The position numbers were made by a program, and so were the translations under genes. From the NCBI GenBank assembly GCA_964187785.1, contig OZ076409.1, positions 71,922,001-71,986,000 of the forward strand: a stretch of DNA of 64,000 nt. Reading direction: 5' to 3'. The DNA comes from Amphiscolops sp. MND2022. Taxonomy: Eukaryota. Position 1 is the stretch's first letter, and each line of letters opens with the position of its first letter. The notes under the pieces were generated by a model. The model did not search any database. It had not been told where the DNA came from and was given only the letters and a program-made list of their open reading frames with translations. Shown here piece after piece: positions 1-64,000 of the stretch.

Positions 1-1496
1 GGTTGGGTCCTGCCGGACGTCAAATAGTGTGAAACATCCAGTAGGAAACGGCGACATAAATCAGCGATTTTAAAATTTAACCGTTAGAATTCGGACTTGG
101 AGTGCATGCGGCCCCAAAATGCCCATACGAATCGAAGTTCCTGCTGACGTTAAGCGATAAAAACATTTTATAAAAAGTTATGGCCCATTTTACGTTCAAC
201 TATAAGGGTAAAATGAGGAAAATTTTTACAAAGTCGCTGATAACTCAAAATACATTAACTTTTGGACTTTGACTGTGAAACAAGCTTAGAACCTTCATTT
301 CGTGGCTGTGGCATTGCACTGAACACAAAAGATGTAAAGTTTTTACATTTTTCGAAAATTCGACATTTTTGATTTTTTTTTCACTACTATCAGTACACTA
401 TATGTCAAAAACACCTCTGAAAAAAATTATTATTTGCTTAAAATTGGAAACCTTGGTATCCATGGTTTCTGTCGGAACCTACTCGCTGCCAAACACCCAA
501 CAGTTTGCATCCAATGTGAATTTAAAATTTTTTTCGAGGTCATAAGGGTTTCACAAGGTTTTCATAACTTAGTATTAAACTACAAACTGGTCATTTTCAA
601 CATAATATCTTTGTCGAGGCATGTCGGATATAGTCCTATTGCTCACGAACGGTCCTACTGGCAACGTAATAACCATTTATAGAAATGTAAAGTTATAAAA
701 AAATTTTTCACCCGGTCTTCAGTCATTTTTCAGTCATTCGGAACTTAACTTAGAAAAATTTCGACCAAAATATCCATTTTTTGTCAGGTCGAAAAATCAA
801 ATTCAGATTTTTAAGCAAAATTATTAACTCTGACGTAACCCATGGGGCCCATGATACTCAAAACAACGATTGACACTGGTATCAATGGCTCCAATAACAT
901 ATGAGTCGCGATAAGAGGTTATTTTGAGCATTACGTCTCAATTGAGGTAAAGATCTCGCAAGCCAGCGATCACTGTGAAATGTGATTTCATCAAAAATTT
1001 ACTCTTTTTTGTCAATCACTATGTGCACAGAATGCGTAGGGTGCGTTTCAGCACTATAATGAGGTTATTGAAGGCATCGAGTTGCTCAAGGGGTGGTATG
1101 AGACATTTTTGTCCCATATACTACTGTATTTTCCAAAATTTTTAGCCCAATATCTTCAAATACAAACTTGACAAAATACTTTCAACTACTTTATTCAAAG
1201 GTTACAATATAGATGAACACTGTGGTTGATCAGAAACTTTCATCTCTTTCGTTTTCCGAAATATTTCCCTTCGCATGTGTAATTCGTAGCAGAAAAAAAA
1301 ATCGAAACTGAAAAATACGCAATTTTGCTAATATAGAATCGCAATGATTGTGCCTAAAAACTCTTTAAACACTTCTAACGCAACCTTACGCACCCAAAAT
1401 GATCGAATATGCTATTCACAATGGTGACATGTGCTCTTTCTACGATCCTGGCTGGACAAGGTTTGCATATTTTTCAAGTACCTGTCAGCTAAATCT

Positions 1497-1546
1497 TGTG
1501 ATAGCCTTTTCAGTTGGCCTTGTGTCAACTTGGGAAGGCTATCACA
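1497..1546. repeat. Internal long palindrome P1 (all A units; family B at 4156-4198 and 7524-7567)
   Basis: TGTGATAGCCTT..AGTTG..CAACT..AAGGCTATCACA. Confidence 0.85.
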
Positions 1547-1836
1547 TCAAAAAACCATCAATAAAAATAATTTTTGTTTATTGGATCTTACAGTCGAAAC
1601 TTTTTTTCGTGATTCTATACTACCGTTAGTATATTTCATCAGGTCACCTTACGATTGCATTCAGTCTTTGATAAAAACCTATGAACTCAAAGTCACATTT
1701 ATATATTTTTTGCCCAACAAAATCATCAAAAATATCTAAAATACATAAAATAGAGTCTTTAACTTTTTTACGTTTCAAGTTTCTGCCGTTATTATGCCAA
1801 TCAACGTCCTAGAGCCACATCCTGCCACATACTGTA

Positions 1837-1946
1837 CAACGCCACATAGTGTTGCGACGTGCACAGTCTGTGGGCATGCCGAGGCATGCCCTTCGACGAC
1901 GTATGCCGAATACCGCGGGCCTACGCCCGCGCTCCCCGGCTAGGTG
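1837..1946 (+). other. Conserved right-end module (representative of 25 copies): direct repeats, palindrome, two hairpins, GCTAGGTG
   Basis: CAACGCCACAT..CRACGYSCAY..GTCYGT RGGCATGCCRAGGCATGCCY TTCGACGACG-like module present before every junction in all four families. Confidence 0.9.
1872..1891. promoter_or_regulatory. p53-family response-element match GGGCATGCCG AGGCATGCCC (representative; one per unit, e.g. 4658-4677, 5939-5958, 7912-7931, 16637-16656, 40572-40591, 56056-56075, 62101-62120)
   Basis: 19/20 match to RRRCWWGYYY x2 with zero spacer and CATG cores; binding is not demonstrated. Confidence 0.5.
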
Positions 1947-4734
1947 GCGGGGGGCTGTCCCCAATAGAATATAGTGAGGTAGGGTAGGGTTCCCTACCGA
2001 ACATTCAGTACTGAAAGACTCTTGTAGTATGAAAATTTTTCGATGTTTTGAGACCGATTTCGGATTCCACCCGTCAGAAGTTTATGATTTTTTGGCCCCC
2101 ACCCAGATTTTGGGCACTGATCGCCCCCCACCAGGTTCCATACCCGTGGTTTCGTTGTGACGGGTACACGAGCGACCGTTAGGGGTCAATCAGGGGGTAA
2201 AATTTATAAAAGTGTGAATAACTTTTCCCCCCGTCGTTTTAGCAGGTCCGGTCACTAGTAAAGGTTTGTTGGGCATCATGCAGTGGGTAAGGGGGGCCAA
2301 ACAAAAATTTTCTATCTTGCACCGTTACGGACTTGGCCCCCCGCCCAAACCGCTATTTTACCGGAAATTGCACTTTTTGACCGGGAAGGAGTCGTCTGAG
2401 CGCGGAGTCATTTGGTAATGTTTTGTAGAGCATCTGGAGACGTGGTGGGGGACATGTAGTTTGCCGACCCCAGTTTACCCCTCGGACGGGAAATGACCGT
2501 TATGTGAGTTTCAAAAATGCCCCCCTCCAATTTTCCCCGCAATTTCCGGTGTGAAGGAGTCGGAATAGCGTGTCGAGTGCTATATATCAAAAGTAGCTTT
2601 AAACAAGGACCTATCAGAAACATGTGGTTTGGGACCCTTTGAACGGACCCGTTAGCCGGAAATAGGGTGACCGCCTCCTCTTTTTGGTGGTAAAACCGTA
2701 AAACGGGCATTAAAGTGTAATTATCTCGTGAACGCGTGGAGCAATCGTGTCCATCACTCCTACAAGGTTTCATACCCATGACATGGTGCCTTCAGGGGGG
2801 CAAACAGATCAGCGCTATCTATCACCGTTACGGACTTTGCCCCCCAGCCTAACCGCTATATTACCGGAAATTGCCCTTTTTGACCGGGAAGGAGTCGTCT
2901 GAGAGTGGAGTCGTTAAGTAATGTTTTGTAGAGCATCTAGAGACGTGTTGGGGGACATGTAGTTTGCCGACCCCGGTTTACCCCTCGGACGGGAAATTAC
3001 CGTTATGTGAGTTTTAAAATTGACCCCCTTCAACTTTCCCCGTTATTTCCGATGTGAAGGAGTGAGGGTAGCGCGTCGGGTGTCATATATCAAAAGTAGG
3101 TTAAGACAAGGACCAACCGGGAACATGTTGTTTGGGACCCTCTGGCCCAACCCGTTAGCCGTTATAAGGGTGATCGCCTCCTTTTTTTACTGCTAAAACC
3201 GGAAAACGGGCATTGAGGGGTAAATATCTCGTGAACGCGTGGAGCAATCGTGTCCATCACTACTACAAGGTTTCATACCCATGATACGGTGCCTTCAGGG
3301 GGGAAAACAGATTACCGCTATATATCACCGTTACGGACTTGGCCCCCCAGCCTAACCGCTATGTGACCGGAAATGTCATTTTTTGAGCCAAAAGGGTTGG
3401 TCCCAGCGTGGGAACGTCAGGTAACTTTATGTAGAACTCAATGAGACGAGTTGGGGGATATAGTTTTAGTCACCCCCCGTTGACCCGTTGGACCGGAAAC
3501 GACCGTTATGTAGTGAAAAATGTTATTTTTATACTTTTTGAAGGCCATTTAGGGCAGGAAGTATCGGTAATATGTCTTTGGACAGTATACAATGAAAGTT
3601 TTGGTGTGAAACGAGCAATCTGAAATAACCGTTATTATGATTCGGAAGTCACACTAACAGCGAAAATGACCGTTATGTAGTGAAAATTTTTTTCACAATT
3701 TTTTTTATTTTCGATAGGTCCTTCAAGCCAGGAAGTAGCTGTATTAGGTCTTTGGTCACTTTATGATGATTGTGGTGTTGTGAGATGACCGTACGAACTT
3801 GACCGTTATAATGCCCCTGAAGTTGCGGCGGCACGAGAAATTTCAGAAAGTTTGTCTTTTCTGTGTTTTGTTGGAATAAACATGTAATTTCATCAAACCA
3901 AAGTGCATTCAGGGTGTCAGAAAGCTTCAAGAAAAGAATTTGACAGGAAACATGAGATGAGAAATAGGAAAATGCCACGGAAATCCAACCCGTTGGGAAG
4001 TAAAGATAATAAATTGGTTTGGAAGTGCCAATCGACGTGTAATTGCGGATCATAGCTACGATATTGTCTCTTTTGTTTCTTTTTGAAGACTTTGAACATT
4101 TTCACTTTATCAGCTTGAAGTTTCGACTCCATTAACTCAATAACCGTTACAATATGATAGCCCTCAAGTTGACCTTGTGTCAACTTGAAAGGGCTATCCT
4201 TTCACAACTGCGCAGCGACAGTGTGATTGAGTGTTTTTGTTATTATCCATAGCCAATTTGAACTTCAACAAAAGTTTAACCATAGTTAAAAAATTTCATA
4301 TGATTCTTTTAAAAGGATAAGTAAGAAACAAATGTTTGACAAAAAACTTTCAACCTTTAATTTGTGGACTGAATATCAGGAAAACCATGTCTCCTAACGT
4401 TGTTGGATGAAATTCAACATGATTCTTTTAATAGGATAACAAAGTTTGACAACATATTTTTTTATATTCTTTCGTTGGTGCTCTACATTTTAGGAAAACG
4501 AATTTTCCAACAAATATTGTTGGCTGATGCCTGTTCATAGTGGCTTGAAAATTTCACCAACTGTAATGCTTTTTATCAAAGGTGAAACCGCTCCTTACCG
4601 TCGCATAATGTAATTCAAGCCGACGCCCACATGCCAACATCAACGCCCACCGTCCGTAGGCATGCCGAGGCATGCCTTTCGACGACGTATGCCAAATCAC
4701 GCCCCTGCGAGGTCACTAAAGCGGTAGCGGCTAG
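1944..4734 (+). mobile_element. Unit 2, family B (2791 bp, GC-richer, internal 503-bp repeats)
   Basis: Bounded by two GCTAGGTG junctions; body unrelated to A but homologous to unit 4; conserved end modules present. Confidence 0.7.
2290..3520 (+). repeat. ~503-bp tandem repeat, ~2.4 copies (family B)
   Basis: ACCGTTACGGACTT anchor at 2321, 2824, 3327. Confidence 0.85.
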
Positions 4735-6012
4735 GTGGTCGTTAGCATGGGATTTTCTTTATGAGCGTAGTCCACTTTTTTTAGGCCGGGGTAGGGTCCC
4801 GGGCCGTTACCAATTTCTTACGGAGGAAAAATGTGAAAATCTGCGAGTTTAAAAAATTGGCCCGTACGATTTGGCTGAAAATTGGCATACAGCATCGTCT
4901 TGGTAAACAAATGACTTTGTCCTAGTGACATTTTGCCCAGAAAATTCAAAAAGTTGGTCAAATTGAAAATTTTTTGACCGTCTAAGGCTAAAATTTGACT
5001 TTTTCGCTTTTTTTGGTCAATTTCCTCAGAACTGGTTGATTTTGGTGAAGTAAGTCATAAGAAGTTATAAGGTCTGCAAATAGCATTCAATTGGCTTGCA
5101 TAATCAGATTTTGTCAAAAGTGTTTAGTTTTTTCAAAATTTCACACTTTTTTTTCATTTCAGTGTTTTTTGATACAATTTATTGAATTTTTACTAAGTTC
5201 CACTAAATATTTTTAAAATGTTTTTAAAAAACCTTTTTTTGCACGTTTTTGATGTTTTTTGCTCTCCCATATAGGTTTTCGCATACGGGGAACCTGAATC
5301 TGACAACGAAATAATTTTATTCCGCAGTTCAACTTACGCCATTTTTAATAGTGAAAAATCACTCATTTTCAATCTAACGAGTGAAAATATCAGAATTTAA
5401 AAACCTAAAGTTGAGTTTAAGGCGACTTACAGGTAGAAACAAATGCTCAGAAACAAACTGATTTCTTGTATTAGCTAAAGAAAGCCTTTAAAATTCTTTT
5501 TACTTTCTTTAAATCAAAATTCGACACTTTTCATGAAATTTGTCAGTGGAAAAAATTTATCATTTTTTAAATTAAAAACTTGCTTTGTTGGTCATTTCCG
5601 TTAGTCATTAGTAGCTGTGTAATGCTCCAAAGCCTTTCAAGTTCTTTTGACCCTATTTGAAAATTTTCGATACTGCATAATCAATCCGAGAGAACGAAAC
5701 AGTTGTGTACATTCCATCTCCCTCTTGGGGGAGATGAGAATGTACTTCCTAAAGTCCAGGTACTACAGATCATATTTGGTTTTATGCGACGCCCTTTAAG
5801 CTAGTGCATATAAATACAAGTTGTTTGGCTGGATTTTGCTTCTGACTTGACGTATACTGTACGTTTGGTACTGACAATACCCATCATTTACATAACAAAC
5901 GTCAACGCCACATACCCTTACCAACGCCCATAGTCCGTAGGCATGCCGAGGCATGCCTTTCGACGACGCGCGCCAAACACAAGCGCGCCCGCACTTTTGC
6001 GGTAGCGGCTAG
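4735..6012 (+). mobile_element. Unit 3, family C (1278 bp)
   Basis: Near-identical to unit 8 and homologous to unit 24; bounded by junction 8-mers. Confidence 0.75.
5707..5745. repeat. Internal long palindrome P2 (all C units and complete D units, e.g. 15742-15780, 39683-39721)
   Basis: GTACATTCCATCTCCC..GGGAGATGAGAATGTAC. Confidence 0.85.
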
Positions 6013-7985
6013 GTGCGGGGGGGAAACCCCAACAAAATTTTTGGAGGATTCGGGTAGGGTCCTGAATCCGAGTTCAGTGCTGCCAGCTTTCGTTAAGAAA
6101 ATTTGGATAGGATTCGGGATCTCGTGATCTAACCATAGGATTTTAAAGTTGGAGCGGCCCCCACCAGATTTTCCGAAAATTAGCGCCCCCCACCGGGTTC
6201 CAGCGTGATTGAAATATTTTGACGGGGTACACGGGCGACCGTTAGGGGTCATTTTGGGGGTAAAATTTATATCCGGTCGCATAACTTTTTTCCTGTTGGT
6301 TTAAAACTTTGGGACCCTGCTAAAAGTTTCTTGACCTTGTTGCAGTGGCTCCGGAGGTCCAAACCAAATTTTTCTATCTTGAAGCTATCTCCAAGTACCC
6401 CCCCGCCCAAAACGTTATTTTTCCGGAAACGCAGGTTTTTGACCCGGAAGGAGTCGTCGGAGCGCGGGGTCGTTAGGTGATGTATTGGAAACGGCCTTGA
6501 GACGAAGTGGGGGACATGCAGTTTGCCAACCCCAGTTTACCCCCCGGACGGGAAATGACCGTTATATGAGCGGGAAAAATGCCCCCCTCCACGTTTTACC
6601 GCTATTTCCGGTGTGAAGGAGTGGGAGTAGCGCGTCGGGTGCCATATATCAAAAGTAGGTTTAAACAAGGACCTATCGGAAACATGTGGTTTGGGACCCC
6701 CTGGACCAACCCGTTAGCGGGAAATGGGGCTTCCGCCTCCTTTTTTTACGGTTAAAAACGGAAAATGGGCATTGAGGGGTAAATATCTCGTGAACGCGTG
6801 GAGCTACGGTGTCCTTCACTACTACAAGGTTTCATACCCATGATATGGTGCCTTCAGGGGGGCAAACAGATTTCCGCTATCTATCACCGTTACGGACTTG
6901 GCCCCCCAGCCTAACCGTTAAGTGACCGGAAATGTCATATTTTGAGCCCAAAGGGTCGGTCTCAGCCAGGGAACGTTAGGTAACTTATTGTAGTACTCAT
7001 TGAGACGAGTTGGGGGACATAGTTTCAGTCACCCCCCGTTACCCCTTAGGACCGGAAATGACCGTTATGTGAGTAAAATTGCCATTTTTGTCCTATTTGA
7101 AGGGCATTTAGATGCGGAAGGAGTGGTAATAGGTGCTTGGACACTGTATGATGTAAGGGAGGACGTTAGGCGAGCATTCGGACATAACCGTTATGTTGAC
7201 CCTAAAGTCCCCCTGGTACCGTAAACGACCGGAAATGGTCAAATTTTGTGTCTATTGGGTACAAATGTTGGGTATTTTGTAGATAAAAGTATCTATTAGA
7301 TGTTTCGACGGTCTGCAGTAGTGAACATAGTCATGAAACCTTGTGGGGGGTAACGGTATATAGCACCGGAAGTCCAAACCGTTGGTGACAGGATAGGTTT
7401 TTTGGTTTTAAAATGTCTTTCGGCGTACCTTTGTCGACTATTAAGGACTATTTTTAAAAATTAAAGATTTTCCATATAGTTTCAGAGACTCCGAAACCTC
7501 AACCAACATAACCGTTACCTCATGATAGCCTTTCAAGTTGGCCTGGTGTCAACTTGGAAGGGCTATCCTTCAAAAATCGTCAATCGAGTGTGTTTTTGGG
7601 TATGTTTGTATCATTTTAGAATCAATTAGAGCTTCAAGAAAAGTTTCCCAACGACAAAAACTAATTCGTGAAGATTCCGTTACTAGAATTATAGTTAGCA
7701 AATTGTTGAGAAAAATGTTTTTTTTCCAAATTAAATGTGTCCTAAATGCCAGGAAACCTATTTAACTAACAAATGGTATTGATTGGAATGTATGTAACAG
7801 ATTTATAAAAGTTCAAATTGATTATTAAGTTTCATTATGGAAGCTGAAACGTAATATTTTAGTTTAATTAACGTCAACGCCACATACTTTTTATCAACGC
7901 CCACCGTCTGTGGGCATGCCGAGGCATGCCCTTCGACGACGTATACCAAATACATACCTAACGACGCCCGTACATTCCGGGCTAG
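6013..7985 (+). mobile_element. Unit 4, family B variant (1973 bp)
   Basis: Diverged homolog of unit 2 with one fewer 503-bp repeat and a different distal region. Confidence 0.7.
6360..7080 (+). repeat. ~503-bp tandem repeat, ~1.4 copies (family B variant)
   Basis: Homologous to the unit 2 repeat; boundaries approximate. Confidence 0.7.
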
Positions 7986-9969
7986 GTGGGCGGGGGTAAT
8001 TCCCCAACAAAAATTACGGCCGGCGGGTTGGGTCCTGCCGGACGTCAAATAGCAAAGAATATCTAGTAGGAAACGGCGACACAGAATCGCGATTTTTAAA
8101 TCTAACCACAATTTTTTGGACTTGGAGTGCATGCGGCCCTGAAATGCCCATACGAATCGAAGTTCCTGCTGACGTTAAGCGATTGAAATAATATATAAAA
8201 AGTTATGGCCCATTTTTCACTCACAAAGAAGGGTAAAATGAGGAAATTTTCAACAAAGTCGCTGATAACTCAAAATGTGTTAATTTTTGGACATTGACTG
8301 TGAAACAAGCTTGGAACCTTCATTTCGTGGCTGTGGCATTGCACTGAACACAAAAGATGTAAAGTTTTTACATTTTTTGAAAATTTGACATTTTTGAAAT
8401 TTTTTTCACTACTATCAGTACCCCATATGTCAAAAACGCCTCAGAAAAAAATTTTTATTTGCTTTAAATTGGAAACCTTGGTTTCCATGGTTTCTGTCGG
8501 AACCTACTCGCAGCCAAACACTCAACAGTTTGCATCCAATGTGAAAATAAAATTTTTTTCGGGGTCATAAGCGTTTCACAAGGATTTCTCAACTTAGTAT
8601 TAATTTACAAAATGGTCATTTTGAACACAATATTTTCATCGAGGCTTGTCGGCTATAGTCTTAATGTTATAGAACGGTCCCACTGGCAACGTAGGAACCA
8701 TTTATAGTAATAGAAAGTATTTAAAAAATATTTTCACCCGGTCTTCAGTCATTTTTCAGTCATTCGGAACTTAACTTAGAAAAATTTCGACCAAAATACC
8801 CATTTTTTGTCAGGTCGAAAATTCAAAATCAGATTTTTAAGCAAAATTATTAACTCTGACGTAACCCATGGGGCCCATGATACTCAAAACAACGATTGAC
8901 ACTGGTATCAATGGCTCCAATAACATATGAGTCGCGATAAGACGTTATTTTGAGCAATACGTCTCAATTGAGGTAAAGATCTCGCAAGCCAGCGATCACT
9001 GTGAAATGTGATTTCATAAAAAATTTACTCATTTTTGTCAATCACTATGTGCACAGAATGCGTAGGGTGCGTTTTAGCACTATAATGAGGTTTTTGAAGG
9101 CATCGAGTTGCTCAAAGGATGGTATGAGACATTTTTGTCCCATATACTACTGTATTTTCCAAAATTTTTAGCCCAATATCTGGAAATACAAACTTGACAA
9201 AATACTTTCAACTACTTTATTCAAAGGTTACAATATAGATGAACACTGTGGTTGATCAGAAACTTTCATCTCTTTCGTTTTCCGAAATATTTCCCTTCGC
9301 ATGTGTTACATTTGTAGCAGAAAAAAAATCGAAACTGAAAAATACGCTATTTTGCTAATATGGAATCGCAATGATTGTGCCTAAAAACTTTTTAAATACT
9401 TCTAACGCAACTGTACAGACCCAAAATGATTGAAAATGCCATTCACAATGCTGACATGTGCTCTTTCTACGATCCTAACTGGACAAGTTTTGCATATTTT
9501 TCAAGTACCTGTTAACTGAATCTCGTGATAGCCTTTTAAGTTGGCCTTGTGTCAACTTGGGAAGGCTATCACATCAAAAAATTTTCAACAAAAATACCTT
9601 TTGTTTATTGGAAATGACAGTCGATATATAATTTCGTGATTCTATACTACCGTTAGTACCTTCCATTAAGTCACCTGACGATTGCATTCAGTCTTTGATA
9701 AATACCTATGAACTCGAAGTCATATTTATAATTTTTGTGCTAAAAATAAACATCAAAATTATCCAATTTATTTAAAATTGAGTCTTTACCGTTTTTGTTT
9801 TACTTTTTCTACTGTTATTTAGGCCCATCAACTTCCTACAGCCACGCTCTCTGTCATTAGTACAACGCCACATAGTGTTGCGACGTGCACAGTCTGTGGG
9901 CATGCCGAGGCATGCCCTTCGACGACGTATGCCGAATACCGCGGGCCTACGCCCGCGCTCCCCGGCTAG
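7986..9969 (+). mobile_element. Unit 5, family A (1984 bp), head h2, tail t1
   Basis: Colinear with other A units; bounded by junctions. Confidence 0.75.
8020..8041 (+). other. Conserved left-end hairpin with T(A/T/C)GGGT loop (representative; also 1978-1998, 4784-4805, 6046-6069)
   Basis: Stem sequence differs by family but stays paired; loop conserved. Confidence 0.75.
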
Positions 9970-11954: not shown

Positions 11955-12769
11955 GTGGGCGGGGGTAATTCCCCAACTAAAAAATCGGCCGGCGGGTAGG
12001 GTCCTGCCGGCCGTCCAAAATCAAAATTATACTAGTAGAAAACGGCCGGTCAAACGAGCTATTTTTTTATTTAACCGTTAGAATTTGGGTTTAGATTGCA
12101 TGCGGCCATGAAATGGCCATACGAATCGAAGTTCCTGCTGACGATTTGCGATTGAAACACTTTATAAAAAGTTATGGCCAATTTGTCATTCACCTAGAAG
12201 GGCAAAATGAGGAAAATTTTAACAAAGTCGCTGATAACTCAAAATGTAATAATTTTTGGACTTTGACAGTGAAACAAGCTTGGAACTGTCATTTCGTGGC
12301 TGTGGCATTGCACTGAACACAAAAGATGTAAAGTTTTCACATTTTTTGAAAATTCGACATTTTTGAATTTTTTTCACTACTATCAGTACACTATATGTCA
12401 AAAACGCCTCTGAAAAAAATTTTTATTTGCTTAAAATTAGAAACCTTGGTATCCATGGTTTCCGTCAGTACCTAATCGCTGCCAAACGCTCAACAGTTTG
12501 CATCCAATGTGAAAATATAATTTTTTTCGAGGTCATAGGTGTTTCACAAGGATTTCTCAACTTAGTATCTATTTACAAATTGGTCATTTTGAACACATTA
12601 TTTTCATCGAAGCGTGTCAGATACCACCCTAATGCTCACAAATGGGCCTACTGGCAACGTTGGAACCATTTTTAGTAATAGAAAGTATTAAAAAAATATT
12701 TTCACCCGGTCTTCAGTCATTTTTCAGACATTCGGTACTTAACTTAGAAAAATTTCGCATCAAAAACCC

Positions 12770-13950: not shown

Positions 13951-14159
13951 AATGATAGTACTGGTGTTTGAACCATGTCCGGATGAACAAATCACAAAAT
14001 CATCAAAAAATTGTTCCCTTTTTTGGTTATTTTGGCAGTACTAAAAATGTTAGCTGATAAATAATTTTTTCGATGGCACCATTGGATTCCTCTCAAAAAG
14101 TTGGTTATATGACCTGTGTAATAACCCCGTATCTTTTCAATTTAAATATATTTAAAAAG

Positions 14160-51372: not shown

Positions 51373-54300
51373 GTGGGCGGGGGTAATTCCCCAACAAAAA
51401 AATCGGCCGGCGGGTCGGGTCCTGCCGGCCGTCCAAAATCAAAATCCTCCTAGTAGAAAACGGCATGTCAAACGAGCTATTTTTTTATTTAACCATACGA
51501 ATTTCACCATTTTTTGCATGCGGCCCTGAAATGGCCATACGAGACGAAGTTCCTGCTGACGTTTTGCGATGTAAATGTTTTATAAAAAGTTATGGCCGAT
51601 TTGTCATTCACCTAGAAGGGTAAAATGAGGAAAATTTTAACAAAGTCGCTGATAACTCAAAATGTGTTAATTTTTGGACTTTGACAGTGAAACAAGCTTG
51701 GAACTGTCATTTCGTGGCTGTGGCATTGCACTGAACACAAAAGATGTAAAGTTTTCACATTTTTTGATAATTCGACATTTTTGATTTTTTTTTCACTACT
51801 ATCAGTACACTATATGTCAAAAACGCCTCTGAAAAAAATTTTTATTTGCTTAAAATTAGAAACCTTGGTATCCATGGTTTCCGTCAGTACCTACTCGCTG
51901 CCAAACGCTCAACAGTTTGCATCCAATGTGAAAATATAATTTTTTTCGAGGTCATAGGTGTTTCACAAGGATTTCTCAACTTAGTATCTATTTACAAATT
52001 GGTCATTTTGAACCCATTATTTTCATCGAAGCGTGTCAGATACTACCCTAATGCTCACGAATGGGCCTACTGGCAACGTTGGAACCATTTTTAGTAATAG
52101 AAAGTATTAAAAAAATATTTTCACCCGGTCTTCAGTCATTTTTCAGACATTCGGTACTTAACTTAGAAAAATTTCGCATCAAAAACCCATATTTGGTAGG
52201 GTCGAAATTTGAAATTCAGTTTTTTATGCAAAATTATTAACTCTGACGTAACCAATGGAGCCCATGATACTCAAAAACACGATTGGGACTGGTATCAGTG
52301 GCTCCAATAACATATGAGCCGCGATAAGACGTTATTCAGAGCAAACGCTCTAAATCGAAGTAAACATCTCTGAAGCCTGGGATCACAGTGAAATGTGATA
52401 TCACCAAAAGTTTACTCTTTTTTGTCAATCACTATGTACACAGAGTGCGTAGGGTGAGTTTCAGGACTATAATGAGGTTTTTGAAGTAATCGCGCTGCTC
52501 AAGGGGTGGTATGAGACTATTTTTTCCCATATACTACTACATTTCCATAAATTTGCAGTCCATTGTCTTGGAAAGATAACTTCACAAAAACAATTTTTCT
52601 ACTCTATTCAGTTATTAGAATAAAGTTGAACACTGTGGGTGATCAGAAATGCTCAATTCTTTTGGTTTTTAAAAAAAGTCCTTCGCATTCGTTACATTTG
52701 TGGAAGGAAGGTTATCAGTAGCTCCAAAAAAAACGAAATTTAGCACGAACAGACATGCAACGATGCAAAGCAAAAACGTTTTTACAACTTCCGACGTCAT
52801 TATTTTACCCAAGAAGTTCGAAAATATCATTCGCAATGCTGTCATTCGCTATATATACGATCGCGGTCAATTTACAAACATTTAGATTTCATTGTTCTGC
52901 TTGAAAACCAATTTTTGTCAGGTCGAAATTTTAAATTTTACCTGGGGAGCAATACCCTTCACGCTGAAGTAAACAGTGGGGCCCAAGTTACTCAAAAACA
53001 AGAAAGAGACTGCTACAATATGTCCTAATAACATATGGACCACGATAGTACGTTTTTCACACAAAAAACTCTCATCCGAAGTAAATATGTTGAAAGCTTT
53101 TAATCACCGTGAGAAGTGATTTCATCAAAAAATAACTCTTTTTTGTCAATCACTATTTACACAGAATTTGTAAAGTTAGTTTGAGTCATGAAATGAGGCT
53201 TTACCGTAATATGGGTTGCTCAAGGTGTTATATAAGACAAAAACTTCCTCTTTTCTACTAGCTTCTTCAAATATTTCAACCCTTTGTCACAATAAGTTAA
53301 TATTCAAAATCTCTTTGAAATGTATCTTTATGTTGGGGTGAAGTCTAAGAACAATAACTATGATCGAAGAATGCTAGTACTGGTGTTTGAACCATGTCCG
53401 GATGAACAAATCACAAAATCATCAAAAAATTGTTCCCTTTTTTGGTTATTTTGGCAGTACTAAAAATGTTAGCCGATAAATAATTTTTTCGATGGCACCA
53501 TTGGATTCCTCTCAAAAAGTTGGTTATATGACCTGTGTAATAACCCCGTATCTTTTCAATTTAAATATATTTAAAAAGCCAACTATTTTGACCAAAATCC
53601 TAAAAATCATACCATTTCCTAAAAATTTTCAAATGCACCCCATTTGACGTATAAGATAAGCACAGAAAACTATCATATACCGATCAACTCTACTCCTATT
53701 GTAGATTATTAGAATTTTGTTTAGAATGAATTTTGATGAATAATAAAAAAATTTTGAACCCTCCAAAAATGGGCCAAAATTACACGAAAAAATTGACCTT
53801 AAAATACCAAAATGTCAAAAAATCATCAAAACCCAGGCTTCTTGGGGTTCTATCAACTCCGCGTGGTCCACAGAGTATGCTAAAACAGGTTTTACCCGTT
53901 TTTGAGCAATATGTGAAAAAGCCGACATTTTTGGGAAAGAAAAACATACCATTTCCTAAAAAAATTCAAATGCACGTCATTTGCCGTATTAGAATAGCAC
54001 AGAAAACTATCACATACCTATCAACTCTACTTTCATTGCAGATGAACAGAATTTTGTTTAGAATAAATTTTACCGGATAATAAAAAAATTTGAATCCTTC
54101 AAAAATGGGCCAAAAATGCACGAAAAAATGGACCTTAAAAATTTAAAATGTCAAAAAATCATCAAAACAACAGCTTCTTGGGGTTCTATCAACTCCACGA
54201 GGTCCACAGAGTATGCTAAAACAGGTTTTACCCGTTTTTGAGCAATATGTGAAAAAGCCGACATTTTTGGGAAAGAAAAACATACCATTTCCTAAAAAAA

Positions 54301-56133
54301 TTCAAATGCACGCCATTTGCCGTATGAAAATAGCACAGAAAACTATCACATACCAATCAACTCTACTTTCATTGCAGATGAACAGAATTTTGTTTAGAAT
54401 AAACTTTACCGGATAATACAAAAATTTGATTCCTTCTAAAATGGGCCAAAATTACACGAAAAAATGGACCTTAAAATTTTAAAATGTCAAAAAATCATCA
54501 AAACCACGGCTTCTTGGGGTTCTATCAACTCCACGTGGTCCACAGAGTATGCTTAACCCGGTTTTACCCATCTTTGAGCAAAATGTGAAAATACCGACAT
54601 TTTTGGAAAAGAAAAACATGCCATTTTCTAATAAATTTCAAATGCACGCCATTTGCTGTATGAGAATAACACAGAAAGCTGTCACATACCGATCAACTCT
54701 ACTTCCATTGTAGATTATCAGAAGTTTGTTCAGAATAAATTTTGAAGGATAATAAAAAAATTTGAATCCATCAAAAATTGGCCAAAATTACACGAAAAAA
54801 TTGACCTTAAAATATCAAAATGTCAAAAAATCATCAAAACCACAATTTCTTGGCGTTCTATCAACTCCATATGATACCAAACCAAGTACTGCCAATCGTT
54901 TGAGTTATAATAAAAAAACGTCTTTTTTGGCAAGAATTCCATACCATAAATAATAATCATGTTCCATATAAGAAGCGAATCATTTCAGATATATACCCTG
55001 TTCATTTTTTTAATATTACCGATTATTAATTTATTAGATGTTTTGAATGTGAGCTTCCTAAAAGGTTCAGGTGTGATGATACGTAAATAGAACCTTAGTT
55101 TCATCGAAATCTCAATTGAATATGTCCAATCTTAACCATCAGATAACAAGAAACACTTAAGTACATTCCATCTCCCCATCGGGGGAGATGAGAATGTACT
55201 TTCGAGAAGCCAAATACGTCCAACATTCAAACTTTTGTAACTTTGTATGTAACTCCTGAAACGAAGAAGGAATAAAATTGTTTCTGGTACATACATGAGT
55301 CTTTACTTCAGCTTCTATTTCTGCTGAACAAAACCATTCGACTCTTTTGCCGGAGTTAAGATCGATTGTATTACCCAGTGAACAAAGGCATGACTGAAAA
55401 CGTTTACTACTTTGTTCATAATTTTCCGGCCTTCCGAAATGATGAAACGTCCACATAACTAAGATAGCAAGTGAATGACTGCGAAATGCACCTTATTAGA
55501 TGAGGTAAATAACGTGTAAAACTCTCCTTTATCCTAACATGAGGTTGAGTAATGATCATTTGAGAATAGTTTGATATGTGAATACAATAGTATAAAACAA
55601 GTACATTTTATATGAATAACGCCGTGGAAAGCGTTCAGAAAGGACAGTAGGCTTGTTTGGAACATGTATGTGTGGTGTCCCTTGGTGGCGTTCGCTTAGT
55701 GTATATGTCGAGGGGTATTCGAGTTGTTATGATAGAATTTACACACAAGTCTTTTGTTTTTTGGTTTTTTTAAAATGTCGTTAAGTACCTGCATTCTATC
55801 CCCTTCTCAGAGATGACGTGAAGTTACGTTTGCTAAATAAATGTCATCGAAAGATCACACTCCCGACGAAATTAACTATCTTAACACGTGTTTAGAATTT
55901 TAAATAAACAACCGTATAAGATTTTTATATTTCATTGAGTTTGATGAAGTCTTTTGTTCTTCTCACTACTATTTCAACCAATACACATATCCGTTACCAT
56001 ATCACATGTCTCCATTAGTACAACGCCACATAGCGTTCCGACGCCCACAGTCTGTGGGCATGCCAAGGCATGCCCTTCGACGACGTATGGCAAATGGAGC
56101 CATGCCCGCCGTCTTTACGGCGGTAGCGGCTAG
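51373..56133 (+). mobile_element. Unit 23, family D1 (4761 bp), head h4, tail t5
   Basis: Body near-identical to unit 7 but with a different head. Confidence 0.75.
53580..54950 (+). repeat. 336-bp tandem repeat, ~4 copies (D1)
   Basis: Copy of the unit 7 repeat block; boundaries approximate. Confidence 0.85.
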
Positions 56134-57412
56134 GTGGTCGTTAGCATGGGATTTTCTTTATGAGCGTAGTCCACTTTTTTTAGGCCGGGGTAGGGTCCCG
56201 GGCCGTTACCAATTTCTTACGGAGGAAAAATGTGAAAATCTGCGAGTTTAAAAAATTGGCCCGTACGATTTGGCTGAAAATTGGCATACAGCATCGTCTT
56301 GGGAAACAAATGACTTTGTCCTAGTGTCATTTTGCCCAGAAAATTCAAAAAGTTGGTCAAATTGAAAATTTTTTGACCGTCTAAGGCAAAAATTTGACAT
56401 TTTCGCTTTTTTTGGCCAATTTTCTTAGAATTGGTTGATTTTGGTGCAGTGAGTCATAAGAGGTTATAAGGTCTGCAAGTAGCCATCAATCGGCTTGCAT
56501 AATCAGATTTTGTCAAAAGTGTTTAGTTTTTTCAAAAATTCACACTTTTTTTTTATTTCAGTGTTTTTTGATAATTTTTATTGAATTTTTTCTAAGTTTC
56601 ACTAAATTTTTTAAAAATGTTTTAAAACACTTTTTTTGCACGTTTTTGATGTTTTTCGCTCTCCCATATAGATTTTCGCATACGGGGAAACTGAATCTGG
56701 CAACGAAATAACTTTATTCTGCAGTTCAACTTTCGCCATTTTTAATTGTTGAAAAATCACTCATTTTCAACCTAACGAGTGAAAATATCAGAATTTAAAA
56801 ACATAAAGTTGAGTTTAAGGAGACTTACAGGTGGAAACAAATGCTCAGAAACAAATAGATTTCTTGTATTAGCCAAAGAAAGTCTTTAAAAATTCTTTTT
56901 ACTTTCTTTAAATCAAATTTCAACTATTTTTAAGAAATTTGGCAGTGAAAAAAAATTATAATTTTTAAATTAAAAAAAACTTGCTTTGTTGGTCATTTCC
57001 GTTTGTCATTATTAGCTGTGTAATTCACCAACACGTTTCAAGTTATTTTGACCCAATTTGAAAATTTTTGATACTGCATAATCTATCCGAGAGAACGAAA
57101 CAGTTGTGTACATTCCATCTCCCTCCTGGGGGAGATGAGAATGTACTTGCCAAAGTCCAGGTACTACAGACCATATTTGTTTTATGCGACGCCGTCTATA
57201 CTAATGCACATGAATACAAATTGTTTGTCTGAATTTTACTTCTGACTTGACGTATGCTGTACGTTTGGTACTGACAATACCCATCATATACATAACAAGC
57301 GTCAACGCCACATACCCTTACCAACGCCCATAGTCCGTAGGCATGCCGAGGCATGCCTTTCGACGACGCGCGCCAAACACAAGCGCGCCCGCACTTTTGC
57401 GGTAGCAGCTAG
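56134..57412 (+). mobile_element. Unit 24, family C (1279 bp), diverged copy
   Basis: Colinear with units 3/8, with many substitutions in the middle and conserved ends. Confidence 0.75.
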
Positions 57413-60400
57413 GTGGGCGGGGGTAATTCCCCAACAAAAAAATCGGCCGGCGGGTCGGGTCCTGCAGGCCGTCCAAAATCAAAATCCTCCTAGTAGAAAA
57501 CGGCATGTCAAACGAGCTATTTTTTTATTTAACCATACGAATTTCACCATTTTTTGCATGCGGCCCTGAAATGGCCATACGAGACGAAGTTCCTGCTGAC
57601 GTTTTGCGATGTAAATGTTTTATATAAAGTTGTGGCCGATTTGTCACTTACCTAGAAGGGCAAAATGAGGAAAATTTTTACAAAGTCGCTGATAACTCAA
57701 AATGTGGTAATTTTTGGACTTTGACTGTGAAACAAGCTTGGAACCTTCATTTCGTGGCTGTGGCATTGCATTGAACACAAAAGATCTAAGGTTTTTACAT
57801 TTTTTGAAAATTCGACATTTTTGAAAATTTTTTCACTACTATCAGTACCCCATATGTCAAAAACACCTCAGAAAAAAATTTTTATTTGCTTTAAATTGAA
57901 AACCTTGGTAGCCATGGTTTCTGTCGGAACATACTCGCTGCCAAACACCCAACAGTTTGCATCCAGTGTGAATTTAAAAAATTTTTTCGAGGTCTTAGGT
58001 GTTTCACAAGGATTTCTCAACTTAGTATCAAATTACAAATTGGTCATTTTAAACACATTATTTTCATCGAAGCGTGTCAGATACCGCCCTAATGCTCACG
58101 AACGGGCCTACTGGCAACGTTGGAACAATTTATAGTAATATAAAAGGTTTAAAAAATTTTTTTCACCCGGTCTTCAGTCATTTTTCAGACATTCGGAACA
58201 TAACTTAGAAAATTTTCGACCCAAATACCCATTTTTTGTCAGGTCGAAAATTAAAATTCAGCTATTAAAGCAAAATTATTTACTCTGACGTAACCAGTGG
58301 GGCCCATGATACTCAAAAACACCATTGGCACTGGTACCAATGGCTCCAATAACATATGAGTCGCGATAAGACGTTATTTTGAGCAATACGTCTCAATTGA
58401 GGTAAAGATCTCTCAAGCCTGGGATCACAGTTAAAAGTGATTTCGTCACAAATTTACTCTTTTTCGTCAATCACTATGTACACAGAGTGCGTAGGGTGAG
58501 TTTCAGCACTATAATGCGGTTTTTGAAGGAATCGGTCTGCTCAAGGGGTGGTATGAGACATTTTTTTTGCATGTAGTACTATATTTCTCAAAACTTTTAG
58601 CCCAATATCTCGAAAAGCTCACTTCGCAAATTACTTTCAGTTACTCTATTCGAAGCTTAGAATATACATGAACACTGTGGTTGATCAGAAACTCTTGACT
58701 ATTTTGTTTTTGGAAAAAAACTGCCTTGCATGTGTTACATTAGTGGCAGGAAAAATACCAGTAGCTCCAAAAATCACAATTTTGGACGGACAGACCTGCA
58801 ATGATGCAAAGCAAAAACGTTTCAACAACTTCTGGCGCCACTTTTTTTACCCAAGAGGTTCGAAATTACTATTAACAATGCTGACATTCGCTATAAATAA
58901 GATCGAGGTCAATTTACTAACACTTAGGTTATACATTTATATCTGAGAAACCATTCTTTGTCAGGTCGCAATTTTAAATTTAGTTTGGGAAGCAATACTT
59001 TTCACTCTGAAGCAAACCGTTGGGCCCAAATTACTCAAAAACTACAAAAAGACTGTCACCATATGCCCTAATAGCATATGAGATTCGACCGTATGTTTTT
59101 AACACAAAAACTCTCATCCGAAGTAAACATGTTGAAAGCCTTGAATCACCGTGAGAAATGATTTCATCAAAAAATATTCCTTTTTCGTCAATCTTTATCT
59201 ACACAGAACACGTTGTGTCATTTTCAGCCGTGAAATGAGCTTCTACCGTAATATGGGTTGCTCAAGGTGTTGTATAAGACAAAAACTTCCTCTTTTCTAC
59301 TATCTTCTTCAAATATTTCAACCCTTTGTCACAAGAAGTTAATATTCAAAATCTCTTTGAAATGTTTCTTTAGGTTGGGGTGAAGTGTTAGAACAATAAT
59401 TATGATCGAAGAATGATAGTATTGGTGTTTGGACCATGTCCGGATGAACAAATTGCAATATCATGAAAAATTTCTTACCATTTTTGGTCATTTTGTCAGT
59501 ACTAAAAATGTTAGCTGAAAAAGAATTTTTTTGATGGCACCATTGGATTCCTCTCAAAAAGTTAGCTATATGAACTGTGTAATAACCCCGTATCTTTTCA
59601 ATTTAAATAATTTTAAATAGCAAACTTTTTTGACTAAAATCCTAAAAATCATACCATTTCCTAAAAAATTTCAAATGCCCCCCATTTGACGTATAAGAAT
59701 AGCACAGAAAACTATCACAAACCGATCGACTCTACTTCCATTGTAGATTACCAGAATTTTGTTTAGAACAATTTTTGACGGATGCAAAAAAAATTTAAAC
59801 CCTCCAAAAAAGGGCCAAAATTACACGAAAAAATTGACCTTAAAATTTTAAAATGTCGAAAAATCATCAAAACCACAGCTTCTTGGGGTTCTATCAACTC
59901 CACGTGGTCCACAGAGTATGTTAAAACAAGTTTTACCCGTATTTTAGCAATATGTGAAAAAGCCGACTTTTTTGGGAATGAAAAACATACCATTTCCTAA
60001 AAAATTTCAAACGCACCCCATTTGACGTATAAGAATAGCACAGAAAACTATCACATACCGATCGACTCTACTTCTATTGTAGGTTACCAGAATCTTGTTT
60101 AGAACAATTGTTGACGGATGCAAAAAAAAATTAAACCCTCCAAAAATGGGCCAAAATTACACGAAAAAATTGACCTTAAATTTTTAAAATGTCAAAAAAT
60201 CATCAAAACCACAGCTTCTTGGGGTTCTATCAACTCCACGTGGTCCACAGAGTATGCTAAAACAGGTTTTACATGTTTCTGAGCTATATGTGAAAAAACC
60301 GACATTTTGGGGAAGAAAAACATACCATTTCTTTAAAAATTTCAAATGCACGCCATTTGCCGTATGAGAATAGCACAGAAAACTATCACATACCGATCAA

Positions 60401-62177
60401 CTCTACTTCTATTGTAGATTATCAGATTTTTGTTTAGAACAAACTTTTATGGATATAAAAAATTTTTAAACCCTCCAAAAATGAGCCAAAATAACACGAA
60501 AAAATGGACCCTAAATTTTTAAAATGTCAAAAAATTATCCAAACCACAGCTTCTTGGGGTTCTATCAGCTCCACATGGTCCACAGAGTATGCTAAAACAG
60601 GTTTTGCCCGTTTTTGAGCAGTATATGAAAAAGCCGACATTTTTGGGGAAGAAAAACATACCATTTCCTAAATAATTTCAAATGCAGGCAATTTGCCGTA
60701 TGAGAGTAGCACAGAAAACTATCACACACCGATCAACTCTACTTCTTTTGTAGATTATCAGAATTATGTTTAGAGTAAAGTTTTATGGATATGAAAAATT
60801 TTTATACCCTCCAAAAATGGGCCAAAATGACACGAAAAAATTGACCTCAAATTTTTAAAATGTCAAAAAATTATCCAAACCACAGCGTCTTGGCGTTCTA
60901 TCAACTCCAAATGACCTTCAGAGTATACCAAACCAGGTATTGCCAATCTTTTGAGCAATATTTAAAAACACCGACTATTTGGCAAGAACACCATAATATG
61001 TTCCATATAAGAAGTGAATCATTCCACATATATACCCGGTCTAATATTTCCAAATTAGCGATAACATTTATACATGATGGTTTTTGAAAGTGAGCTTCAT
61101 AAGAGGTTGAGATGTAATAATACGTAAATGGACCCTAAGTTTCATTGAAATCTCAATGGAATACGTCCAATCAACTTCAATCCTAACTATTATATAACAA
61201 AAAACACTTGAGTACATTCCATCTCCCCATCGGGGGAGATGAGAATGTACTTTTCAAAAGCCAAAAACTTCGAATTTTAAATCTTTTGTAACATTGTATG
61301 TGACTGTTGAAACGATGAACGAATGAAAATGCTTCTAGTACCTTCATCAATTTTTGCTTCAGCTCCTATTTCTGCAGAACAAAACCAAAAGACACACTTA
61401 CAGCAGTTAAGTTCGATTGTATAACTCAGTGAGTAAAGGTATGACTGAGGAAGTTCACAAGTTGTTTCAAAAGTTTCCGGCCTTCCAAAATCATGAAACG
61501 TCCACACAACCAAGATAGCAAGTGAAAGAATGCTGAATGCACCTTATTAGATGAGATAAATAATGTGTGGAACTTGCCATTATCTCAAGATGACGTTGAT
61601 TTATGATCTTTTAAGGATAGTTCGATATGTGACCACAATAGTGGAAAACTTATTACTATTTGAAGAACACCGTGGAAAGCGTTCAGAAAGGACAGTATAT
61701 TTGTTTCGAGCATGCATGCGTGTGTTCCTTTGGTGACGTTAGCTTAGTGTACATGACGGAGGTATTCGAGAGATTATGATAGAGTTTACTCACAAGTCTT
61801 TGTTTTTTTAAACTTTCTATGCCGTTGAGTACATTCGTAAGGTACATCCATCCCCTTCTCTGGGAATGTACGTTTGCCAAATGACTGTCATCCAAAATTC
61901 GTAATCCGGACGAGTTTAACTACATAAACATGTGATGAGCGTTTTCAATTCACAACCGAATAACATTTTTTTTCTCGAAAATGATGATGGTTTTGATTTT
62001 GATGTCTTCTACTTTTATCATCATGCAAACGACCTTACCATGTCTCTCTTCTGTCGTCATTTGTACAACGCCACATAGCGTTCCGACGCCCACCGTCTGT
62101 GGGCATGCCGAGGCATGCCCTTCGACGACGTATGCCAAATGAGCCATACCCGCACTCTGGAGTGCGGTAGCGGCTAG
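57413..62177 (+). mobile_element. Unit 25, family D2 (4765 bp), head h4, tail t8
   Basis: First ~0.7 kb like A units 9/14; from ~58.4 kb like unit 18. Confidence 0.75.
59625..60990 (+). repeat. 336-bp tandem repeat, ~4 copies (D2)
   Basis: Copy of the unit 18 repeat block; boundaries approximate. Confidence 0.85.
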
Positions 62178-64000
62178 GTGGGCGGGGGTAATTCCCCAAC
62201 AAAAAAATCGGCCGGCGGGTCGGGTCCTGCCGGCCGTCCAAAATCAAAATCCTCCTAGTAGAAAACGGCATGTCAAACGAGCTATTTTTTTATTTAACCA
62301 TACGAATTTCACCATTTTTTGCATGCGGCCCTGAAATGGCCATACGAGACGAAGTTCCTGCTGACGTTTTGCGATGTAAATGTTTTATAAAAAGTTATGG
62401 CCGATTTGTCACTTACCTAGAAGGGCAAAATGAGGAAAATTTTTACAAAGTCGCTGATAACTCAAAATGTGTTAATTTTTGGACTTTGACTGTGAAACAA
62501 GCTTGGAACCTTCATTTCGTGGCTGGGGCATTGGACTGAACACAAAAGATGTAAAGTTTTTACGTTTTTTGAAAATTCGACATTTTTGAAATTTTTTTCA
62601 CTACTATCAGTACCCCATATGTCAAAAACACCTCAGAAAAAAATTTTTATTTGCTTTAAATGGGAAACCTTGGTATCCATGGTTTCCGTCAGTACCTACT
62701 CGCTGCCAAACGCTCAACAGTTTGCATCCAATGTGAAAATATAATTTTTTTCGAGGTCATAGGTGTTTCACAAGGATTTCTCAACTTAGTATCTATTTAC
62801 AAATTGGTCATTTTGAACACATTATTTTCATCGAAGCGTGTCAGATACCACCCTAATGCTCACGAATGGGCCTACTGGCAACGTTGGAACCATTTTTAGT
62901 AATAGAAAGTATTAAAAAAATATTTTCACCCGGTCTTCAGTCATTTTTCAGACATTCGGTACTTAACTTAGAAAAATTTCGCATCAAAAACCCATATTTG
63001 GTAGGGTCGAAATTTGAAATTCAGTTTTTTATGCAAAATTATTAACTCTGACGTAACCAGTGGAGCCCATGATACTCAAAAACACGATTGGGACTGGTAT
63101 CAGTGGCTCCAATAACATATGAGCCGCGATAAGACGTTATTCAGAGCAAACGCTCTAAATCGAAGTAAACATCTCTGAAGCCTGGGATCACAGTGAAATG
63201 TGATATCACCAAAAGTTTACTCTTTTTTGTCAATCACTATGTACACAGAGTGCGTAGGGTGAGTTTCAGGACTATAATGAGGTTTTTGAAGTAATCGCGC
63301 TGCTCAAGGGGTGGTATGAGACTATTTTTTCCCATATACTACTACATTTCCATAAATTTGCAGTCCATTGTCTTGGAAAGATAACTTCACAAAAACAATT
63401 TTTCTACTCTATTCAGTTATTAGAATAAAGTTGAACACTGTGGTTGATCAGAAATGCTCAATTCTTTTGGTTTTTTAAAAAATTCCTTCGCATTCGTTAC
63501 ATTTGTGGAAGGAAGGTTATCAGTAGCTCCAAAAAAAAACGAAATTTAGCACGAACAGACATGCAACGATGCAAAGCAAAAACGTTTTTACAACTTCCGA
63601 CGTCATTATTTTACCCAAGAAGATTGAAAATATCATTCGCAATGCTGTCATTCGCTATATATACGATCGCGGTCAATTTACAAACATTTAGATTTCATTG
63701 TTCTGCTTGAAAACCAATTTTTGTCAGGTCGAAATTTTAAATTTTGCCTGGGGAGCAATACCCTTCACGCTGAAGTAAACAGTGGGGCCCAAGTTACTCA
63801 AAAACAAGAAAGAGACTGCTACAATATGTCCTAATAACATATGGACCACGATAGTACGCTTTTCACACAAAAAACTCTCATCCGAAGTAAATATGTTGAA
63901 AGCTTTTAATCACCGTGAGAAGTGATTTCATCAAAAAATAACTCTTTTTTGTCAATCACTATTTACACAGAATTTGTAAAGTTAGTTTGAGTCATGAATT
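62178..64000 (+). mobile_element. Unit 26, family D1, head h4, truncated by window end
   Basis: Matches units 7/23 through the start of the internal duplication. Confidence 0.7.

Follow-up and report, generated by a model that had tools for sequence, protein, structure and literature searches.

The 64,000 nucleotides analysed here (the window; Amphiscolops sp. MND2022, contig C1, positions 71,922,001-71,986,000; C2, C3, C4 and C8 are other contigs of the 1.07-Gb assembly) form an uninterrupted train of units joined head to tail. These units are almost certainly non-autonomous members of a divergent Helitron-like rolling-circle group, and long units in the same trains encode the RepHel enzymes that would move them. 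We consider it probable that the trains grow by junction homing on the chromosome, i.e., that single units inserted preferentially at junctions already resident there. More tentatively, the system might represent an undescribed, widespread class of RepHel-GIY-YIG enzymes that use the origin of a resident copy as integration site, which would make this site a self-renewing landing pad.

The 8-mer GCTAGGTG occurs 25 times on the plus strand of the window and not once on the minus strand, with 0.37 occurrences expected per strand from base composition, and an identical tail palindrome precedes all 25 sites. These split the window into 26 adjoining units of one orientation with no host DNA between them, as the original prediction had described. 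Its statement that one exact 8-mer marks the junctions applies to the window, but elsewhere the first G varies and CTAG-GTG is the conserved part. Likewise, nesting and truncation are absent from the window as stated, but nested and 5'-truncated copies were found elsewhere in the genome. Where four families had been claimed, all-vs-all comparison yields five by length and sequence, in three lineages (A+D, B+E and C). Families A (~1.98 kb) and D (~4.76 kb) have the first ~1.49 kb in common. Unit 4 (6013-7985, 1,973 bp) is only ~54% like the remaining ~1.98-kb units and forms the separate family E (1.97 kb), which is 79-82% like family B (2.79 kb); family C (1.28 kb) is a lineage of its own. Across lineages, alignment is confined to the tail (~100 bp) and to short blocks of palindromic sequence. 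Open reading frames (ORFs) of at least 80 amino acids in positions 1-20000 do not exceed 142 amino acids, and a ribozyme, retrozyme or other known RNA was rejected after an Rfam search of the same part gave one chance-level match; positions 20001-64000, outside both scans, hold the same families.

1..1943, plus strand: unit 1, family A, head cut by the window edge
1944..4734, plus strand: unit 2, family B, 2,791 bp, with an internal duplication of ~503 bp
4735..6012, plus strand: unit 3, family C, 1,278 bp
6013..7985, plus strand: unit 4, family E, 1,973 bp, kin of B and not of A
7986..11954, plus strand: units 5-6, family A (7986-9969, 9970-11954)
11955..16714, plus strand: unit 7, family D, 4,760 bp, first 1.49 kb A-like
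16715..17992, plus strand: unit 8, family C
17993..35884, plus strand: units 9-17, nine mosaic family A units, 85-99% alike, starting at 17993, 19985, 21972, 23961, 25946, 27937, 29930, 31919 and 33901
35885..40648, plus strand: unit 18, family D
40649..42634, plus strand: unit 19, family A
42635..47395, plus strand: unit 20, family D
47396..51372, plus strand: units 21-22, family A (47396-49383, 49384-51372)
51373..56133, plus strand: unit 23, family D
56134..57412, plus strand: unit 24, family C
57413..62177, plus strand: unit 25, family D
62178..64000, plus strand: unit 26, A/D-type head, cut by the window edge
9870..9969, plus strand: example tail, putative terminator, with palindrome (9899-9916), hairpin (9940-9957) and terminal CTAG 12 nt later
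9966..9972, plus strand: example junction CTAG^GTG, with the probable nick and insertion point between 9969 and 9970; alike at all 25 junctions
9970..10029, plus strand: example head, putative origin, with GTG, a small hairpin and a stem-loop with covarying stem around the conserved core
14184..15450, 38115-39451, 44864-46198, 53603-54869 and 59645-60995, unstranded: 336-bp minisatellite in family D

Element ends and target site

The element reads 5'-GTG...CT(A/G)G-3' in the orientation of the RepHel gene, and it inserts after CTNG and before (G/A/T)T without duplication or loss. Hence its last four bases rebuild a target. Our unit sample comprised 111 complete units of less than 7 kb, cut from the window and from fetched loci. 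They end in GCTAG (73), TCTAG (19), CCTAG (7), xCTGG (10) or xCTTG (2) and begin with GTGG (81) or GTGC (30), counts that tally variants and do not prove the rule, as the pattern used to cut units required CTNG-GTG. The bases after 1,474 tails ending GCGGTAGCRGCTAG were GTG(G/C), taken as a head and with the first 100 places listed, in 1,416 cases, GTGA in 3, GT(A/C/T) in 20 and G(A/C/G) in none; the non-G bases were A in 27, T in 8 and C in none. Among 30 checked of the 35 tails flanked by A or T, the second base was T in 28. Conversely, the 20-mer that starts A/D heads (n=810) is preceded by CTAG in 794 cases and by CTGG in 11, all of the latter downstream of another unit's tail-like sequence. 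Of 18 apparently host-flanked heads, 13 follow CTNG (CTAG 6, CTTG 5, CTCG 2).

Copies outside the trains separate the element from its target. As the original prediction had proposed, array edges and solo copies were inspected, and solos carry GCTAGGTG on neither side. Their flanking tetranucleotides can differ between left and right, for example CTTG-GTG...CTAG-AT. Where an insertion has CTTG to its left and CTAG or CTGG to its right, the right tetranucleotide must be the element's own and not a 4-bp duplication. The solo copy L117 lies in tRNA-like sequence, of which another copy represents the exact empty site across both flanks. On C8, two whole units, inserted 13 nt apart at CTTG^GT and CTGG^GT, break up a 1,288-bp unit whose pieces map to 1-1114, a 13-nt spacer and 1127-1288 of an intact sibling; we rejected terminator bypass with a read-through tail for this junction, which is a double nested insertion. 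No target-site duplication was seen at the L117 empty site, in the C8 nested case or at solos with unequal tetranucleotides. As a general rule duplication was rejected: of 40 free tails, L141 shows it clearly and the pair L123/L126 doubtfully.

The clear case, L141 (C4:63901400-63907899), is a 177-bp, 99%-identical 3' unit fragment at CTAG^GT. Here 10-12 bp of the downstream flank are duplicated, a pattern suggestive of second-strand nicking and target-primed fill-in after a failed 5' join. Numerous further free tails are truncated at the 5' end (47-650 bp) and show no duplication. The free tails of L117 and L134 adjoin one tRNA-like sequence, possibly a short interspersed nuclear element, at neighbouring CTAG sites.

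The head contains a stem-loop with the conserved core GGG(T/G)(A/T/C)GGG(T/C)CC, and CTNG-GTG lies 36-54 nt upstream of the core in 122 of 124 cases. Stem covariation amounts to 5.5 of 8 pairs, compared with 4.46 +/- 0.11 in 1,000 shuffles of 52 distinct heads, a significance that the shuffle overstates as related heads are not independent. Terminal inverted repeats were not found in the 111 units: the longest inverted match between head and tail measures 5-9 nt, no more than in random pairs. By eye, many head stems (L032, L041, L158, L159 and others) show opposed GA/GA steps, with CGAG in either arm; once the DNA is single-stranded, these steps could give rise to tandem sheared G-A pairs.

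RepHel enzymes of the long units

A search for long units with the same ends and an ORF had been suggested by the original prediction, and it led to units of 12-14 kb that encode HUH/Pif1 RepHel proteins. Coding units with the window's ends thus lie in the same trains as the short units, in agreement with the rolling-circle, Helitron-like enzyme that had been listed among the candidates, and with the claim of non-autonomous elements that are moved in trans and whose own ends regenerate the target. A train on C1 holds a 13.7-kb unit with an intact RepHel ORF of 2,377 amino acids (P0001), in which Helitron_like_N (E 5e-10) and PIF1 (E 6e-11) both score above cut-off and the C-terminus matches GIY-YIG slightly below it. 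Across 26 aligned proteins, the HUH histidines His1131/1133 and Tyr1302 are invariant and Tyr1306 nearly so, which gives a YxxxY pair. The model of the Rep region (predicted local distance difference test, pLDDT, 77) has the Helraiser structure 7LCC as its sole clear predicted fold match (Foldseek E 6.8e-7; Z 16.3, root-mean-square deviation 3.7, 268 aligned residues), with the next best match at Z 5.9. At the sequence level, RepHel matches Helraiser in the helicase only (E 2.4e-6), more weakly than it matches bacterial Pif1. The GIY-YIG domain resembles SLX1 weakly (best E 0.027), so that this kinship is a lead only.

The enzymes are numerous. Scoring 46 of 772 candidates in the genome gave at least 58 matches to P0001, of which 23 are full-length and stop-free, and a second RepHel query gave at least 113 matches (112 of 447 candidates scored) in several subfamilies, mostly in trains and on the train's strand. 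Representatives of four subfamilies are 33-42% identical. One of the intact RepHel genes lies on the minus strand of C1 at ~24.000-24.007 Mb. Coding units of 12.3-13.7 kb have CTAG-GTG joins to their neighbours and the head core at their start, and in 8 of 10 further loci the first junction downstream of RepHel carries the window's tail; of the other two, one has a third tail class and one no junction. In three of the 8 loci (L154, L155, L157) the window-type tail lies within 1.0-1.4 kb of an accessory ORF. This second ORF, ORF2, encodes 330-440 amino acids (model pLDDT 84), and the N-terminal half of its model appears to resemble the OB folds of MCM10, Teb1 and RPA (Z at most 9.1, Foldseek E 7.5e-5); language-model leads were POT1, CTC1 and MEIOB at a low recognition score. 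ORF2 was not found in six short metagenome loci. A variable third ORF of 214-257 amino acids lies between RepHel and the OB-fold ORF (L039, L035, L044/L045, L019); the one protein scanned had no Pfam match, and by eye a motif resembles that of SGNH/GDSL hydrolases. L161 (C1:3593800-3603299) holds a longer RepHel subfamily of 2,816-2,853 amino acids, followed by several ORFs, one of them OTU-like by eye.

Outside this genome we found 308 RepHel representatives at E up to 1e-30. GIY-YIG is present in 14 of 19 scanned relatives (13 at or above cut-off) and OTU in 3. DUF6570 or AP endonuclease gave no match in P0001 (E up to 0.05) or the 19 relatives (E up to 0.001), a search that a very divergent copy could escape. 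Near-identical RepHel proteins occur in public ENA assemblies. At the start of the metagenome contig L165 lies the same head stem-loop, followed 1.4 kb later by a RepHel that is at most 47% identical to the four proteins of our genome compared with it. Viral contigs contained no RepHel relative, and their 8 single junction-pattern matches, with one head core each, were taken as chance.

Order and growth of the trains

Trains extend far beyond the window. The genome contains 4,919 exact matches to a 28-bp tail motif and none to its reversed control. From the listed motif and match positions, the C1 train runs from about 70.46 Mb to at least 76.46 Mb, i.e., about 6 Mb, and further large trains lie on C2 (~102-103.9 Mb) and C3 (~2.4-3.7 Mb), together with many short trains and solos; they were read in samples, and continuity between sampled points is inferred. 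At 75% full-length identity the 111 units fall into 34 families. At least four tail classes occur, and all of them share the head core. Strand switches occur within the C2 train near 102.6-102.7 Mb and the C3 train near 2.55-2.72 Mb, with minus units on the left and plus units on the right, and a tail-to-tail meeting occurs on C1 at ~23.97-23.98 Mb. In L030 (2440-2517), a 78-bp unique spacer that begins with GT and ends with CTTG separates a tail CTAG from the next head; it is either host DNA between two close insertions or a read-through remnant. Host flanks include ORFs of a hAT transposase (Pfam) and others resembling long terminal repeat (LTR) retroelements (L023:5380-7278, minus strand; L026; L012:2064-2846, minus strand), and the solo copy of L026 sits inside an LTR-retroelement-like element.

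The order of units argues for single arrivals. In the window, 10 pairs of units are near-identical (96.5% or more); in none of them are the flanking units near-identical too, and adjacency does not raise the identity between A units (89.8 vs 89.5%; permutation p 0.41). In the sample of 111 units, none of 84 adjacent pairs reaches 97%, nor does any of 30 comparisons between neighbours of near-identical pairs. Unit order is hence not explained by duplication of one compound repeat, in line with the original prediction. Reciprocal-recombinant chimeras, which homologous integration of circles should leave, were absent from 10 adjacent A pairs, which argues against that route. Segmental duplication and concatemers likewise found no support from neighbour identities. 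Without alike neighbours, duplicated blocks or chimeras, the units most probably arrived singly at the junction.

Such arrivals could be explained as follows. RepHel enzymes from the 12-14 kb units would move the short units in trans. From HUH chemistry and Helraiser we assume that RepHel binds the head stem-loop and nicks CTNG^GTG; Pif1 would then unwind the strand and the OB-fold protein might coat it. After termination at the tail hairpin and CTAG, a unit circle with a CTAG^GTG joint would be closed. Helraiser circles have precise end joints and are cleaved at the joint (PMC5876387, PMC4778049, portions consulted). As a chromosomal junction equals the circle joint and thus a complete origin, we propose that it is nicked far more often than a bare CTNG^DT. 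The freed CTAG-3'OH could accept the incoming enzyme-bound unit, and trains would grow unit by unit, in a single orientation and from any active family, while rare insertions at bare sites would seed new trains. Because every insertion leaves two usable junctions, the landing pad would renew itself and be shared by many enzyme subfamilies. The GIY-YIG-like domain might resolve flaps or nick the other strand, which is a guess.

The same elements and enzyme might instead assemble mixed trains off the chromosome, by circle fusion or terminator read-through, and insert them as blocks. Bypass of the terminator and head-to-tail joints are documented for Helitrons (PMC4067079, PMC5876387, in the parts consulted), and short three-unit trains do lie within host DNA (L132, L143). 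Yet read-through predicts repeated neighbour pairs and concatemers predict identical neighbours, and the comparisons above gave 0/30 and 0/84; circle fusion amounts to the junction-homing reaction itself, and the two are indistinguishable here. We therefore regard assembly off the chromosome as unlikely.

It is also improbable that the enzyme has a weak tetranucleotide preference and that trains owe their existence to local hops, to the loss of scattered copies and to expansion through unequal exchange or gene conversion. Family A does recombine, with incompatible site pairs rising from 0.09 (less than 100 bp apart) to 0.31 (more than 1 kb), and family-rich domains and many truncated dispersed copies would fit as well. 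However, heads directly follow tails in 1,416 of 1,474 cases of the tail class counted (about 96%), and CTAG or CTGG precedes 805 of the 810 A/D heads. A rough estimate from window base composition puts bare CTNG^DT sites at ~6 million genome-wide, compared with some thousands of junctions. This corresponds to an enrichment of ~10^4, hard to obtain from dispersed-copy loss alone. The window units themselves contain 40 internal CTNG-DT sites on the plus strand, none of them occupied, and no duplicated blocks were found.

We consider a compound satellite or an assembly artefact very improbable, as divergence within families is 1-15%, about 34 families obey one rule on many contigs, a solo has its empty site, near-identical RepHels occur in ENA assemblies, and L165 is an independent metagenome contig. 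A tyrosine recombinase (Crypton- or integron-like) or a DDE transposase with 8-bp duplication (Zisupton/Dada-like), both among the original candidates, would make the Helitrons passengers; this reading has only the shared-junction appearance in its favour and is scarcely credible, since long units with shared ends encode RepHel (genome-wide searches did not extend to tyrosine recombinases), the 8-mer varies and is absent beside solos, which thus lack a repeated core, and left and right tetranucleotides can differ.

Several observations nevertheless weigh against junction homing by these enzymes as outlined. Family-rich domains exist in the trains, and in 22 of 84 adjacent pairs both units belong to one family, so that local hopping or waves of activity are needed on top of the model; the train bias could also partly reflect retention and not targeting. 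Five of 810 A/D heads follow a non-G base, and 5 of 18 host-flanked heads do not follow CTNG. Of 55 listed free tails, 40 had their upstream DNA read: a recognisable head was seen in 14, and 26 have none within 6 kb, which means that truncated insertion or decay is common outside trains. The best-studied RepHel subfamily, that of P0001, has a tail class different from the window's, and at longer gaps (L153, L156, L158) an undetected junction could separate ORF and tail. We found no coding unit that would yield the A, D, B or E bodies by simple deletion; the likeness consists of ends and short blocks. Finally, we infer unit circles by analogy to Helraiser, and enzymatic activity is predicted.

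How Helitrons choose their targets and integrate is less well understood than any other part of rolling-circle transposition. Here the rule is sharp (CTNG^DT, with strong enhancement by a resident head) and the genome encodes many intact, near-identical enzymes, so that the system can be tested directly without ancestral reconstruction. It also points to a way in which megabases of tandem DNA can arise without either satellite amplification or concatemers. Tools that seek TC...CTRR ends or terminal inverted repeats are expected to miss such elements. If junction homing is true, the trains would be a parasite-built safe haven, and the enzyme a candidate tool for serial, oriented, site-specific insertion, i.e., a natural directional cassette-stacking integrase for eukaryotes with cargo of 1-14 kb.

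Relation to known systems

In the portions of the literature consulted, we met no account of Helitrons that run GTG...CTAG, target CTNG or build megabase trains from many families, with Repbase/Dfam, supplements and most subscription papers outside the search. HELIANO reports unclassified Helitron-like elements in 19 genomes, and its supplements, or those of the Paramecium paper discussed below, could already include this clade. The original label 'integron-like' holds as an analogy, but not for a fixed attI, promoter or gene cargo, none of which is present.

In common with the HLE1 or canonical Helitrons (Helraiser, 7LCC), the elements have a Y2 HUH Rep fused to Pif1, no target duplication and a 3' hairpin about 12 nt before a CTRR end, and like plant Helitrons they have a separate RPA-like OB-fold ORF. 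Unlike in HLE1, the 5' end is GTG and not TC, the target is CTNG^(G/A/T)T and not A^T, and a structured 5' stem-loop and a C-terminal GIY-YIG-like domain are present. HLE2 elements (Helitron2/Helentron, DINE-1/HINE, FoHeli) resemble ours in hairpins at both ends, satellites in non-autonomous units and the OTU domain, here seen in 3 of 19 relatives, and one HLE2 family of Sphagnum is reported to have captured a GIY-YIG (PMC11417382). In contrast to HLE2, we found no asymmetric terminal inverted repeat, no T^T target and no DUF6570/AP endonuclease match in 20 scanned proteins. The defining end features are 5'-TC and A^T for HLE1 and inverted repeats, T^T and DUF6570 for HLE2 (PMC11417382, PMC4067079). 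As both sets failed, we file the elements under neither group, a separation by features and not by a reference tree.

Head-to-tail Helitron junctions or clusters have been described in bat, silkworm, plant centromeres, Xenopus and Hydractinia (PMC4067079, PMC5876387, PMC5148889, PMC12001565, PMC11934779). In these accounts, however, they are ascribed to bypass or concatemers with like neighbours (2-7 repeats in Xenopus) or to degenerate repeats, whereas the trains described here intermingle whole units of dozens of families and several RepHel subfamilies across megabases. Replitrons (PMC10288648) are likewise HUH transposons that insert 3' of a motif resembling their own end, but they have a Y1 Rep, no helicase and 6-bp direct repeats, in contrast to YxxxY and PIF1 here. 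The telomere-targeted Helitrons of Paramecium (PMC13085455) are, compared by description only and as far as the consulted text goes, the nearest precedent for a targeted third clade. They too fall outside HLE1 and HLE2, with sequence-specific targeting, fixed orientation, several interchangeable right ends and internal satellites. Their target is the host telomeric repeat and their end CCAA, whereas the preferred target here is the element's own junction, and the solo flanks we examined are not telomeric repeats.

The closest parallel in end logic is the IS91 family, with its Y2 HUH enzyme, tetranucleotide-adjacent insertion, lack of duplication and fixed orientation. IS91 targets CTTG, is cleaved at CTCG at its terminus and depends on the adjoining CTTG (PMC13181058), and the CTNG rule found here is nearly the same. 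IS91 lacks a helicase (PMC5876387), whereas PIF1 lies in the same ORF here; moreover, the Rep is predicted to fold like Helraiser, and multi-family IS91 trains were not met in the literature consulted. The end logic thus ties eukaryotic RepHel to IS91, and the system works as a Helitron with IS91-style ends.

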